Virus record (IMG/VR): IMGVR_UViG_3300005715_000008
Origin: a virus
Lineage: Duplodnaviria > Heunggongvirae > Uroviricota > Caudoviricetes
Length of the DNA: 5,325 bases
Reading direction: 5' to 3' (one strand)
A program made the translations under genes and the position numbers. The notes below the pieces were generated by a model that was not told the DNA's origin, did no database searches, and saw only the letters and a list, made by a program, of their open reading frames with translations. Positions within the stretch are counted from its first letter, which is position 1. Every line of letters starts with the position of its first letter. Positions 1,323 to 5,202 of the stretch are shown piece by piece.

Positions 1323-1354
1323 AGGCCTGCTGGTAATCGCAGGCCTTTTTATTT
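1323..1354 (+). terminator. Rho-independent terminator, tR2-like
   Basis: Perfect 8-bp inverted repeat AGGCCTGC (1323-1330) / GCAGGCCT (1339-1346) with an 8-nt loop, followed directly by TTTTTATTT. From memory this closely resembles the lambda tR2 hairpin upstream of ninB, but that is not verified. Confidence 0.75.
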
Positions 1355-1369
1355 GTGGGAGAGGGAAGT

Positions 1370-1696
1370 GTGGCTGACTGGCAAATTCCAATCATCATTC
1401 TTGCCGGAGCTTCGCTGGTTGCTGGCTTTATCCTGCTGAAAAAGCATAAAGACCGTGATCAAAAAGTCGAAGTTCTCTATGGGTATCCAGCGAACAGCAC
1501 AACATGGCTGACCATTTACCACTACCGAAAATCAGGACGCTGGGTATTCGAATGGGATGATCTGTTCGCTGAAAAGCGACCAAAGTCATGGGGAGACATC
1601 AGCGAATGCATGATGTTTGAAGAAAGAAAATCCGGCGCAACCCGAGAAGAGTTTAACGAAGCGTGGGCGCGATTAAGTGAGAGAGGGTATTTGTGA
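1370..1696 (+). CDS. Hypothetical small membrane protein (one N-terminal hydrophobic helix, about 108 aa from GTG 1370)
   Basis: ORF 1355-1696 in the track. GTG at 1370 is preceded by a purine-rich RBS GGGAGAGGGAAG (1358-1369), whereas GTG 1355 abuts the terminator T-tract with no RBS. Hydrophobic stretch IPIIILAGASLVAGFILL followed by KKHK (positive-inside). Stop TGA overlaps the next start (GTGA). Confidence 0.5.
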   Translation: MADWQIPIIILAGASLVAGFILLKKHKDRDQKVEVLYGYPANSTTWLTIYHYRKSGRWVFEWDDLFAEKRPKSWGDISECMMFEERKSGATREEFNEAWARLSERGYL

Positions 1697-1893
1697 GCAA
1701 GTACGAAAAATTAGATCAAAACATTCTTTCAATCCTGAGTGAAAGACCAACACCTGTTTTTGATATCTGGCTTAAATGGCGGAGCAATGGAATGTATATC
1801 GAAACCATCGATCGCCGTATGCAATACCTGAGAAAGAAAGGGCTTGTTGCAAATGTGCGTGGGAAGGGTTGGGTGAAAATTAACCTGTCATAA
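1693..1893 (+). CDS. Hypothetical 66-aa basic protein, possibly DNA-binding
   Basis: GTG start at 1693 overlapping the upstream stop (GTGA), GAGGG-type RBS about 7 nt upstream. Lys/Arg-rich C-terminal half (RRMQYLRKKGLVANVRGKGW) that by eye resembles a winged-helix recognition helix plus wing; weak, unverified. Confidence 0.45.
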   Translation: MSKYEKLDQNILSILSERPTPVFDIWLKWRSNGMYIETIDRRMQYLRKKGLVANVRGKGWVKINLS

Positions 1894-2671: not shown

Positions 2672-2850
2672 GACGACAGCGACGAAGTTTCACCGACATC
2701 ATCTGCGAAAACTGCAAATACCTTCCAACGAAACGCTCCAGAAATAAACGCAAGCCAATCCCCAAAGAATCTGACGTAAAAACTTTCAACTACACGGCTC
2801 ACCTGTGGGATATCCGGTGGCTAAGACATCGTGCGAGGAATACAAGGTGA
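2668..2850 (+). CDS. ninE: NinE-like small protein (60 aa)
   Basis: ATG at 2668 overlaps the ninB stop (ATGA) and is preceded by GGAGG. Arg-rich N-terminus [18 protein letters not shown]; length and position match lambda NinE. The track ORF begins at an upstream in-frame ATG (2623) that lies inside ninB and lacks an RBS. Confidence 0.65.
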
Positions 2851-3017
2851 TTGACCCAAATCGAAGTTACGAACAAGAAAGCGTTGAGCGAGCTTTAACG
2901 TGCGCTAACTGCGGTCAGAAGCTGCATGTGCTGGAAGTTCACGTGTGTGAGCACTGCTGCGCAGAGCTGATGAGCGATCCGAATAGCTCAATGTACGAGG
3001 AAGAAGACGATGGCTAA
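2847..3017 (+). CDS. ninF: NinF-like small Cys-rich (zinc-ribbon-like) protein
   Basis: GTG at 2847 overlapping the ninE stop (GTGA) with AGGA RBS upstream. Product [38 protein letters not shown]... has a CxxC...CxxCC arrangement and matches my recollection of lambda NinF. Alternative start ATG 2805 (track) would overlap ninE by 46 nt. Confidence 0.65.
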
Positions 3018-3621
3018 ACCAGCGCGAAGACGATGTAAAAACAATGAATGTCGGGAATGGTTTCACCCTGCATTCGCTAATCAGTGGTGGTGCTCTCCAG
3101 AGTGTGGAACAAAGATAGCACTCGAACGACGAAGTAAAGAACGCGAAAAAGCGGAAAAAGCAGCAGAGAAGAAACGACGACGAGAGGATCAGAAACAGAA
3201 AGATAAACTTAAGATTCGAAAACTCGCCTTAAAGCCCCGCAGTTACTGGATTAAACAAGCCCAACAAGCCGTAAACGCCTTCATCAGAGAAAGAGACCGC
3301 GACTTACCATGTATCTCGTGCGGAACGCTCACGTCTGCTCAGTGGGATGCTGGACATTACCGGACAACTGCTGCGGCACCTCAACTCCGATTTGATGAAC
3401 GCAATATTCACAAGCAATGCGTGGTGTGCAACCAGCATAAAAGCGGAAATCTCGTTCCGTATCGCGTCGAACTGATTAATCGCATCGGGCAGGAAGCAGT
3501 AGACGAAATCGAATCAAACCATAACCGCCATCGCTGGACTATCGAAGAGTGCAAGGCGATCAAGGCAGAGTACCAACAGAAACTCAAAGACCTGCGAAAT
3601 AGCAGAAGTGAGGCCGCATGA
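3010..3621 (+). CDS. ninG: NinG / Rap (recombination-associated structure-specific endonuclease)
   Basis: 203-aa ORF; ATG 3010 overlaps the ninF stop. N-terminal Cys cluster (CKNNEC...CSPEC), Lys/Glu-rich linker, and C-terminal Cys/His cluster (CISCG...H...CVVCNQHK) as in lambda NinG; length close to lambda NinG. Confidence 0.85.
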
Positions 3622-3824
3622 CGTTCTCAGTAAAAACCATTCCAGACATGCTCGTTGAAGCATACGGAAACCAGACAGAAGTAGCACGCAGACTGAAATG
3701 TAGTCGCGGTACGGTCAGAAAATACGTTGATGATAAAGACGGGAAAATGCACGCCATCGTCAACGACGTTCTCATGGTTCATCGCGGATGGAGTGAAAGA
3801 GATGCGCTATTACGAAAGAATTGA
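3618..3824 (+). CDS. ninH: NinH (small Fis-like HTH DNA-binding protein)
   Basis: 68-aa ORF; ATG 3618 overlaps the ninG stop (ATGA). Helix-turn-helix-like segment [18 protein letters not shown]; length and position match lambda NinH; 3' end overlaps the ninI start. Confidence 0.75.
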
Positions 3825-4473
3825 TGGCAGCAAATACCGAAATATTTGGGTAGTTGGCGATCTGCACGGATGCTACACGAACCTGATGAAAAAACTGGAG
3901 ACGATAGGATTCGACACCAAAAAAGACCTGCTTATCTCGGTTGGCGATTTGGTTGATCGCGGTACAGAGAACGTCGAATGCCTGGAATTAATCACATTCC
4001 CCTGGTTCAGAGCTGTACGTGGAAACCATGAGCAAATGATGATTGATGGCTTATCAGAGCGCGGAAACGTCAATCACTGGCTGCTTAATGGCGGTGGCTG
4101 GTTCTTTAATCTCGATTACGACAAAGAAATTCTGGCTAAAGCTCTTGCCCATAAAGCAGGTGAACTTCCGTTAATCATCGAACTGGTGAGCAAAGGTAAA
4201 AAATATGTCATCTGCCACGCCGATTATCCTTGTGATAAATACGAGTTTGGAAAGCCAGTTGATCATCAGCAGGTAATCTGGAACCGCGAACGAATCAGCA
4301 ACTCACAAGACGGGATCGTGAAAGAAATCAAAGGCGCGGACACGTTCATCTTTGGTCATACGCCAGCAGTGAAACCACTCAAGTTTTCCAACCAGATGTA
4401 TATCGATACCGGCGCAGTGTTCTGCGGAAACCTCACATTGATTCAGGTACAGGGAGAAGGCGCGTGGGCATAA
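3802..4473 (+). CDS. ninI: NinI serine/threonine protein phosphatase (lambda PPase type, calcineurin-like metallophosphatase)
   Basis: From ATG 3802 (RBS GGAG upstream) the product begins [29 protein letters not shown]... and carries the metallophosphatase motifs GDLHG, GDLVDRG, GNHE; it matches my recollection of lambda protein phosphatase almost residue for residue. The track ORF start at 3727 is an upstream in-frame extension inside ninH. Confidence 0.9.
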
Positions 4474-4982
4474 GAGAACTAAACCTCACCAAAGAACAGC
4501 ATGAGTGGCTGAATGGCTGGCTTGAACTGTGGGGCGCATGGGTTTATTCAGGTCGTCTGGAAAAGCGCATGAGCAGCGTAATAGCGAAGTTCATGGAGAG
4601 CGTAGAGCCGGGAAGAGTTATGACAAGGCCAATGTGCAATGATGATGATGGAATGTTGATTTCTCAGGTCGTCGATTCCGTCATGTACATTGACAAGAAA
4701 GCCTTTGGCATCCTCCTCAGCTACTACGCTCATGGTTCATCTAAGCGAGCAATTGCATCCTACTATCACGCGGCTGCAAAGCCACGCAAGATGTGTGGAC
4801 GTGGTGGCGAGGGATGGAGAAAACCTTCACTGGCAACCTGTAGAAACGAAATTGACGACATCCTGAAAGCGTCATTATTTGTTTTATACCAGCCAATGCA
4901 AAATGCTTTCAAAATGCGTAAACGTGTTGAGAAAGTTAAGCATGTTGCTGTTAAAAGCCTTGACATGCAATTAGCCATTTAG
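4464..4982 (+). CDS. Q: Late-gene antitermination protein Q (non-lambda Q family, possibly Q21/Q82-like)
   Basis: 172-aa ORF directly after ninI (GTG 4464 overlapping the ninI stop region, RBS GGGAGAAGG upstream) and directly upstream of a consensus-like promoter plus terminator, which is the canonical position of Q. Sequence does not resemble lambda Q as I recall it; family assignment is from memory and synteny only. Confidence 0.6.
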
Positions 4983-4989
4983 CCATAAT
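4960..4989 (+). promoter_or_regulatory. Late promoter pR'-like (sigma70), probably including the Q-utilisation (qut) region
   Basis: -35 TTGACA (4960-4965), 18-bp spacer, -10 CATAAT (4984-4989); overlaps the Q stop codon (4980-4982). Predicted transcript start around 4996-4998. Confidence 0.55.
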
Positions 4990-5046: not shown

Positions 5047-5121
5047 GGGTCAGTCGTATAAAGGTCATTACGGAAGGCTGTTAACCTTCTTATCGTGGTT
5101 CGAGTCCACGCTGTCCCGCCA
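5047..5121 (+). tRNA. tRNA gene, anticodon GUU (Asn-like), 75 nt with encoded CCA
   Basis: Manual cloverleaf: acceptor 5047-5053 / 5111-5117 (one U-U mismatch at pair 4-69), U8, D-arm with A14 and G18G19, anticodon stem GAAGG/CCTTC with loop CTGTTAA (U33, anticodon GTT), 4-nt variable loop, T-arm CGTGG-TTCGAGT-CCACG, discriminator G, CCA 5119-5121. Confidence 0.6.
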
Positions 5122-5126
5122 AACAT

Positions 5127-5202
5127 GCTGGTTTAGCTCCAATGGTAGAGCAGTCGCCTTGTAAGCGAATGGGTAGCGGTTCAAGTCCGTTAACCAGCAC
5201 CA
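5127..5202 (+). tRNA. tRNA gene, anticodon UGU (Thr), 76 nt with encoded CCA
   Basis: Manual cloverleaf: acceptor GCTGGTT (5127-5133) / AACCAGC (5192-5198) perfectly paired, D-arm GCTC-CAATGGTA-GAGC, anticodon stem 5153-5157 / 5165-5169 (top pair non-Watson-Crick) with loop CTTGTAA (anticodon TGT), T-arm AGCGG-TTCAAGT-CCGTT, discriminator A, CCA 5200-5202. Confidence 0.7.

Follow-up and report, generated by a model that had tools for sequence, protein, structure and literature searches.

Sf6 gene 46 and 47 homologues of a lambdoid prophage: probably two independent accessory genes of the nin region

Introduction

In Shigella phage Sf6 (GenBank AF547987), genes 46 and 47 are recorded after gene 45 (ninA-like), the boundary sequence bsq6 and a terminator homologous to tR2, with ninB downstream; no function has been assigned to either gene in Sf6. 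Lambdoid nin regions are in general tightly packed with overlapping genes (PMC8022706, citing Kroger and Hobom 1982 and Cheng et al. 1995), and in an experimental evolution study of Sf6, 61 of 82 isolates had deletions of part or all of genes 46–58 and lysed faster (PMC5630979). Here we describe the counterpart of this gene pair in a 5,325 nucleotide (nt) stretch of Caudoviricetes DNA (IMG/VR record IMGVR_UViG_3300005715_000008), the whole of which is referred to as the window. The products, encoded between 1370 bp and 1893 bp, are called gp46 and gp47 after their Sf6 equivalents. The original prediction, made from the letters of the sequence, had described them as a membrane protein and a small, possibly DNA-binding protein expressed at a fixed ratio, and had likened them to exclusion, abortive-infection and toxin-antitoxin systems.

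Analysis of the window between 1300 bp and 1922 bp revealed 98.7% nucleotide identity to Sf6, and the two encoded proteins showed 99% and 97% identity to Sf6 gp46 and gp47 (AAQ12235 and AAQ12236), respectively. The pair is thus already catalogued as the Sf6 gene 46/47 module. The gene boundaries, the upstream ninA-like open reading frame (ORF) with tR2 and the 4 nt overlap between the genes were the same as in Sf6, whereas the helicase of the window was only 33% identical to that of Sf6, its ninB was a different allele (39% identity), the third gene was another allele (36% identity) and IS911 was absent from the window. Both products are hypothetical proteins in RefSeq (accessions in Table 1), and the exact gp46 sequence was found on at least 1000 contigs of Escherichia coli, Shigella and Salmonella, where it was always named hypothetical.

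Results

The two genes are separable. The window encoded, in order, a helicase, a ninA-like ORF, genes 46 and 47, orf117, ninB, ninE, ninF, ninG, ninH, a phosphatase, Q and tRNAs (Table 1). Gene order, Pfam matches, the terminator and the Sf6 annotation placed replication genes 5′, the Q antiterminator 3′ and tR2 upstream of the pair, which belongs to the early-right operon of a lambdoid prophage, with the DnaB-type helicase on one side and ninB on the other. We consider gp46 and gp47 to be, with a probability of about 0.7, the products of two independent and non-essential nin-region accessory genes of a lambdoid (Sf6/P22-like) prophage that became adjacent by mosaic recombination and do not form a system.

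Of 5426 complete E. coli genomes, 108 contained gp46 DNA and 64 contained gp47 DNA, the two being contiguous in 63. The original prediction had expected the two genes to co-occur in other genomes; instead, gp46 was found alone in 45 of the 108 gp46-bearing genomes and at 32 of 80 gp46 loci from IMG/VR (gp47 was present at the other 48). At these 32 loci gp46 was either followed by a different ORF of 78 amino acids (aa), overlapping it by ATGA, or ran almost straight into ninB. The gp46 alleles with and without gp47 were intermixed, with no fixed differences between them and a minimum of 0 differences over the first 315 nt. As some gp46 alleles were identical over this length in both contexts, the same gp46 must work with or without gp47.

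Diverged homologues gave no sign of a partnership. Profile searches revealed no gp47 relative near gp46 at any of 12 diverged gp46 loci (a Pantoea prophage, lambdoid prophages downstream of lambda-P/DnaB, contigs encoding PolA, phage IME207 and phage Goslar) and no gp46 relative at any of four diverged gp47 loci, and Pfam analysis identified no helix-turn-helix (HTH) partner after the diverged gp46 genes. Both genes were found together solely in one module, a mosaic of approximately 97–99% identity with a single junction sequence.

The junction itself was examined in the context of the operon. The gp47 start and gp46 stop codons share the sequence GTGA. The ATG of the ninA-like ORF likewise overlaps the helicase stop codon (ATGA), the stop codon of that ORF overlaps the start of gp46 by 8 nt and, in total, overlaps occur at 9 of the 11 gene junctions in the window, with ATGA or GTGA at five. 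The 4 nt overlap is therefore real but generic for this operon and is no distinguishing mark of the pair, contrary to its initial interpretation as a sign of coupled, fixed-ratio expression. It would permit translational coupling, as would the overlaps of nearly every gene of the operon. The junction GTATTTGTGAGCAAGT was identical at all 48 loci having both genes. At loci without gp47, gp46 was overlapped by the 78 aa ORF, which also begins with MSK, or was followed by a remnant of seven codons and then ninB. These alternative neighbours at the end of gp46 identify the junctions as mosaic recombination boundaries. gp46 and gp47 are both real genes, as each belongs to a conserved family and shows purifying selection among near-identical alleles (ratio of nonsynonymous to synonymous polymorphism, pN/pS, 0.19 for gp46 and 0.42 for gp47).

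Several further features of these boundaries were observed. At gp46-only loci (e.g. L033, 6321 bp–6560 bp) the protein ended in RGYQ versus RGYL. The 78 aa ORF (beginning MSKIKSGYPGNGEYPKPYL) was unrelated and had no Pfam match, and in the remaining gp47-less loci the only remnant before ninB consisted of the codons for MSRIKSR and a stop codon. Some relatives contained an additional insert of approximately 225 nt between the ninA-like ORF and gp46 (2210 bp–2435 bp of L005 and 5775 bp–6000 bp of L033), which encoded a small membrane protein with apparently two helices. This insert was flanked on both sides by the boundary motif GTGGCTGA(C/G)T, which is the motif of the ninA/gp46 overlap in the window, and clearly illustrates how a module inserts at a boundary sequence.

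Expression of the gene pair. A tR2-like terminator with an 8 bp stem containing six G-C pairs (AGGCCTGC/GCAGGCCT), followed by TTTTTATTT, ended approximately 15 nt before the gp46 start codon. The predicted RNA fold had an energy of −18 kcal/mol (z −2.2), and the same sequence is labelled ‘terminator, homology to phage lambda tR2’ in the Sf6 record. Genes behind lambda tR2 are transcribed by antiterminated polymerase in lytic growth. A simple consensus scan found no sigma-70-like site between the terminator and gp46; the sole strong promoter-like site on the + strand was the late-promoter candidate at 4960 bp–4989 bp (11 of 12 consensus matches). By analogy with lambda, gp46 and gp47 would be made only during lytic development, after antitermination, and would consequently be a poor fit to an exclusion or addiction function expressed in the lysogen.

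The ninA-like ORF holds the tR2-like hairpin within its own coding sequence. Additionally, a 1 nt length polymorphism in the G-run after the terminator T-tract (1350 bp–1366 bp, within GGGAGAGGGA) fuses this ORF to gp46 in some genomes. Such fusions have been annotated as proteins of 133–137 aa with two hydrophobic segments (P0003, P0004, P0006 and P0013), one of them called by the Prokaryotic Genome Annotation Pipeline (PGAP) in E. coli N9.

gp46, a predicted membrane protein with an orphan domain. The 19 residues 5–23 of gp46 averaged 2.28 on the Kyte-Doolittle hydropathy scale (2.54 over a 17-residue stretch). The N-terminal flank of this segment (MADWQ) contains no Lys or Arg whereas the C-terminal flank (KKHKDRDQK) is basic, and a similar arrangement was seen in 21 of 25 aligned homologues, in which the N-flank was acidic or uncharged and the C-flank contained 2–6 Lys or Arg residues. 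A hydrophobic helix of approximately 19 residues with a positive C-flank predicts a bitopic N-out/C-in protein, so gp46 is probably a bitopic inner-membrane protein with a very short periplasmic N-terminus and a cytoplasmic domain. The AlphaFold2 model consisted of a helix (residues 6–27) followed by a soluble domain of approximately 80 aa with four strands and a C-terminal helix (beta-beta-beta-beta-alpha); the predicted local distance difference test (pLDDT) score was >90 for the domain and 82 overall. The protein contains 6 Trp, 5 Tyr, 5 Phe, 16 Lys and Arg, and 16 Asp and Glu residues, and the family shares the signature YGYP-x5-W-x-T-x12-EWDDLF-x3-RP.

A hydrophobic helix was present in 25 of 50 family representatives. 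The rest had short N-termini, several of them amphipathic (among them Goslar gp236, the IME207 homologue and P0112–P0114), and no signal peptide. As half of the family lacks both a helix and a signal peptide, the domain must work in the cytoplasm, possibly near the membrane in all family members.

A profile search of 1.84 billion representative proteins revealed the gp46 family to be phage-restricted and to comprise 38 clusters. Its members were 73–135 aa long except for two long matches, P0128 (3904 aa) and P0132 (380 aa); these were rejected as domain fusions because they look like repeat-protein noise, and no informative fusions were found. Species-representative genomes contained a single gp46 relative, from Pantoea. 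Homologues were identified in Shuimuvirus IME207, the jumbo phage Goslar (237 kb), the 112 kb phage KookSpook and contigs that encode PolA and reach 148 kb. gp46 matched phrog_5903, a PHROG of unknown function (E 1e-75), and had no significant match in Pfam, NCBIfam or PADLOC and no significant sequence-profile match in the Protein Data Bank (PDB). Foldseek comparison with viral models returned family members only and no other fold relative. The EWDDLF sequence was considered as a beta-clamp-binding or single-stranded DNA-binding protein (SSB) tail motif and dropped, as it is a partial match and is buried in a predicted strand/loop of the folded domain.

In the most likely mechanism, the conserved aromatic and acidic face of the domain (YGYP, EWDDLF and RP) would bind a cytoplasmic, membrane-proximal host or phage factor in lytic growth. 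We infer gp46 to be a small binding module for such a factor, and its role would then be an accessory function of the host-takeover or counter-defence type.

gp47, a minimal winged helix. The gp47 protein is basic (isoelectric point, pI, 10.16), with 13 Lys and Arg against 6 Asp and Glu residues. Its AlphaFold2 model was confident (pLDDT 93) and showed the H1-S1-H2-H3-S2-wing-S3 topology of a winged helix as well as structural similarity to solved winged helices. Residues D40, R41, R42, M43, Q44, L46 and K48 of the predicted recognition helix and G57 and G59 of the wing were invariant in the family, W60 was nearly so, and K49 was also invariant. The pI together with invariant R41, R42, Q44, K48 and K49 suggests nucleic-acid binding, which could occur through the DRRMQ-L-KK helix and the G-x-G-W wing, with gp47 acting alone. 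Some of the top fold matches were protein-binding winged helices (RPA32, Stn1, cullin and ScpB).

The model was closest in fold to Zα and repressor domains, yet showed no significant sequence relationship to winged-helix domains (best E 0.069–0.5; Pfam, NCBIfam and PDB profiles). The gp47 wing, R-G-K-G-W, lacks the Pro-Pro of Zα and keeps only the Trp of Pro-Pro-x-Trp. In the ADAR1 Zα sequence and numbering, which we take to have the Z-DNA contacts Asn173 and Tyr177, these positions correspond to invariant D40 and Q44 of gp47, and gp47 was therefore rejected as a canonical Zα domain (hhalign probability <1%). PADLOC gave only matches at E 0.03 to the winged-helix part of CARF models. For the two proteins overall, Pfam, NCBIfam, PADLOC and PHROGs yielded PHROGs of unknown function and sub-threshold HTH matches.

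The gp47 family comprised 80 clusters, all of stand-alone proteins of 33–84 aa, the full-length members being about 57–84 aa. Most members were encoded by phage genomes of approximately 47 kb (Vi II-E1/NX263 type) without gp46. A 33 aa product starting at internal Met34 and corresponding to the C-terminal half of gp47 (P0184–P0186; 1792 bp–1893 bp of the window) is recorded for at least 1000 contigs. Complete E. coli genomes showed no truncated gp47 DNA, and the short entries most likely reflect annotation that overlooked the GTG start codon and not real truncations. The 90% identity cluster containing the 66 aa gp47 was represented by a 108 aa gp46 variant (P0010), an apparent artefact of the way in which the protein collection was clustered that could bias the number of members counted. 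Diverged gp47 homologues were located in runs of tiny winged-helix-like genes (L130, 5708 bp–6004 bp; L132, 5650 bp–5988 bp; L133, 2689 bp–2895 bp) adjoining replication or partition-type genes (helicase, DnaC-like, ParB-like and beta-clamp). In phage NX263 the stop codon of the gp47 homologue was overlapped by a 68 aa ‘MarR family’ gene.

The structural part of the original prediction was thus borne out: the GTGA shared by the membrane-protein stop codon and the start of the 66 aa protein (with the same boundaries in Sf6), the single N-terminal hydrophobic helix (from hydropathy, flank charges and the AlphaFold2 helix), the Trp- and Tyr-rich soluble domain with 32 charged residues in the protein, and the basic winged-helix second product (from pI, model and fold similarity) were all recovered. 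The proposal that the two form a functional effector and partner pair made at a fixed ratio was not supported.

Coordinates and neighbouring genes. The features of the window are listed in Table 1.

Table 1. Position of the features identified in the 5,325 nt window
Feature	Position (bp)	Strand	Remarks
DnaB-type helicase (3′ part)	to 1297
ninA-like hydrophobic ORF, 27 aa	1294–1377	+	Sf6 gene 45 equivalent; phrog_5907, E 6e-19; Sf6 annotation ‘similar to phage 21 NinA’
tR2-like intrinsic terminator	1323–1355	+	Inside ninA-like ORF; terminator scan (1323–1346), RNA fold, Sf6 annotation
Shine-Dalgarno-like sequence of gp46	1357–1366	+	GGGAGAGGGA
gp46-like coding sequence, 108 aa	1370–1696	+	Sf6 gene 46; WP_000796282.1; start GTG 1370, stop TGA 1694–1696
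Hydrophobic N-terminal helix of gp46	1385–1441	+	Residues about 6–24, IPIIILAGASLVAGFILLK
Conserved soluble domain of gp46	1460–1693	+	Residues 31–108
GTGA, gp47 start/gp46 stop overlap	1693–1696	+
gp47-like coding sequence, 66 aa	1693–1893	+	Sf6 gene 47; WP_000049638.1; stand-alone basic winged-helix protein; start GTG 1693 after GAGAGAGGG, stop TAA 1891–1893
Predicted recognition helix and beta-hairpin wing of gp47	1798–1878	+	Helix residues 36–48, IETIDRRMQYLRK; wing residues 52–62
orf117	1905–2258
ninB	2261–2671
ninE	2668–2850
ninF	2847–3017
ninG	3010–3621
ninH	3618–3824
Ser/Thr phosphatase	3802–4473
Q-type antiterminator	4464–4982
Late-promoter-like site	4960–4989
tRNA-Asn	5047–5121
tRNA-Thr	5127–5202

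The product of orf117 was acidic (pI 5.0) with 6 Trp residues, matched phrog_343 and had no Pfam match. In related prophages this slot was occupied by very divergent alleles (30–38% identity), some of which carry the annotation ‘phiTE_015 family protein’. The most likely start codon of the phosphatase gene is the ATG at 3802 bp, 23 nt inside ninH, although the program-made ORF list gave a longer, TTG-initiated ORF from 3727 bp. The GTG start codon of Q was 10 nt inside the phosphatase gene. The late-promoter-like site was near-consensus (TTGACA-18-CATAAT) and overlapped the end of the Q gene; it was followed by tRNA-Asn(GTT) and tRNA-Thr(TGT), the same tRNA pair that has been reported at the start of the Sf6 late operon. 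An Rfam scan revealed the two tRNAs and nothing else.

Discussion

That gp46 and gp47 are independent accessory genes is argued by their separability and by the dispensability of the region that contains them, as the viable Sf6 deletion isolates show the nin region, including these genes, to be non-essential in the laboratory. Several points weigh against this interpretation. The Sf6 study (PMC5630979) does not specify for individual deletions whether genes 46 and 47 were among those lost. The topology of gp46 was derived from the positive-inside rule and not from a dedicated predictor or experiment, and the absence of a promoter from a simple sigma-70 consensus scan. The literature search found no functional study of gp46, gp47 or Goslar gp236, and the activities proposed here for the two proteins are inferred because no experiment on either was found. 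Finally, gp47 of this allele type was almost always accompanied by gp46 in E. coli (63 of 64 genomes), a pattern that would also be expected if gp47 depended on gp46 in this lineage.

Such a dependence is part of an alternative that we regard as unlikely, in which the gp46 domain is a new-fold effector that acts on a conserved enterobacterial target from the cytoplasmic side of the inner membrane, for example in counter-defence or host takeover, with gp47 as its lineage-specific nucleic-acid-binding partner. If true, gp46 and gp47 would constitute a previously undescribed membrane-tethered, DNA-associated device.

It is very unlikely that the genes form a dedicated two-gene module for abortive infection, superinfection exclusion or addiction, with gp46 as membrane effector or toxin and gp47 as DNA-binding regulator or antitoxin. 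The overlapping stop and start codons, the constant junction and the presence of gp46 in 63 of the 64 E. coli genomes with gp47 would fit such a module, and a small membrane protein beside a small winged-helix protein resembles some defence and toxin-antitoxin layouts. However, gp46 alone was common and identical over its first 315 nt to gp46 beside gp47, whereas an unguarded toxin would not persist in this way, and diverged homologues of either gene occurred without the other. Expression in the lysogen is unlikely, given the terminator immediately upstream and the lack of an own promoter-like site, and the region can be deleted in Sf6. The type II toxin-antitoxin features were also not found: the pair was not conserved across diverse genomes, the simple sigma-70 scan identified no promoter at which it could be autoregulated, and neither protein showed toxin or antitoxin homology in Pfam, NCBIfam, PADLOC or PDB. 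PADLOC, which was used to detect similarity to defence proteins, returned nothing for gp46 and no significant match for the pair. Nor are the families confined to the cargo of temperate phages, as homologues occur in the non-lambdoid Goslar, a jumbo phage, and in IME207, KookSpook and the Vi II-E1/NX263-type genomes. The architecture of exclusion, abortive-infection and toxin-antitoxin systems that had been proposed for the pair was thus not supported, since the genes match no known family of this kind, are separable and have no promoter-like site of their own.

We think it scarcely probable that the pair is a split device for tethering phage DNA or the replisome, with gp47 as the DNA-binding part and gp46 as its membrane anchor, which would be a functional counterpart of Bacillus phage phi29 p16.7 divided over two polypeptides. 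Its appeal lies in gene position. Both genes are directly 3′ of replication genes in the window; in IME207 the gp46-like gene is flanked by the primase/helicase and helicase genes, and elsewhere such genes come directly after DNA polymerase A or 1–4 small genes downstream of lambda-P/DnaB; and gp47-like genes lie between ParB-like and beta-clamp genes or one small gene past a helicase or DnaC-like gene. The early regions of small phages, however, put many unrelated genes beside replication genes, the gp46 and gp47 families were never together outside one module and roughly one in two gp46 family members lacks a membrane helix. Export of gp46 through a signal peptide or N-in anchor, with a periplasmic domain that might block DNA injection by other phages, is the least probable reading: it would suit the single N-terminal hydrophobic segment, and several of the proteins known to cause superinfection exclusion are small and located in the envelope, but the N-flank has no positive charge, nearly all homologues have a Lys/Arg cluster after the helix, the gp46 sequence has no signal-peptidase-like or lipobox motif and the hydrophobic segment is missing from approximately half of the family, Goslar gp236 and the IME207 homologue among them.

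With the genes read as independent accessory genes, the pair itself matters little and is unsuitable for lists of candidate defence or toxin-antitoxin systems. The individual families are of more interest, and each of the two might provide a compact protein of reagent size that has a new host target. gp46 represents a small, sharply conserved phage family, lacking a Pfam model or a detectable fold relative, that is common to lambdoid temperate phages, phages of T5 size and a jumbo phage that forms a nucleus. gp47 is among the smallest winged-helix proteins that stand alone, and is structurally closest to Zα without the Z-DNA contact residues.

Comparison with known systems places the locus as follows. 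Lambda RexAB and type II toxin-antitoxin systems resemble it in having two small adjacent genes, for a membrane protein and a putative DNA binder, with coupled translation; the gp46–gp47 pair differs in that it is not conserved across genomes, has no own promoter-like site, shows no homology to known systems and also occurs, as single homologues, outside temperate elements. In Bacillus phage phi29, p16.7 combines an N-terminal membrane helix and a cytoplasmic DNA-binding domain in one polypeptide. Both p16.7 and gp46 are early phage proteins in which an N-terminal membrane helix is joined to a cytoplasmic domain, and both are encoded close to replication functions, but no sequence or fold similarity between the two was detected and the DNA-binding domain of p16.7 is within the membrane protein itself. 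The domains compared with gp47 were Zα (PKZ, ZBP1 and ADAR1) and the DNA-binding domains of Rrf2/IscR, IclR, ArsR and MarR; gp47 differs from the repressors in having no dimerisation or ligand-binding domain. The lambdoid nin genes (lambda ren to ninH; P22 ninA to ninZ) include no named protein homologous to gp46 or gp47, yet they share with this gene pair their location between the replication genes and Q, 3′ of tR2, their dense ATGA and GTGA overlaps, their mosaic exchange at gene boundaries and their dispensability.

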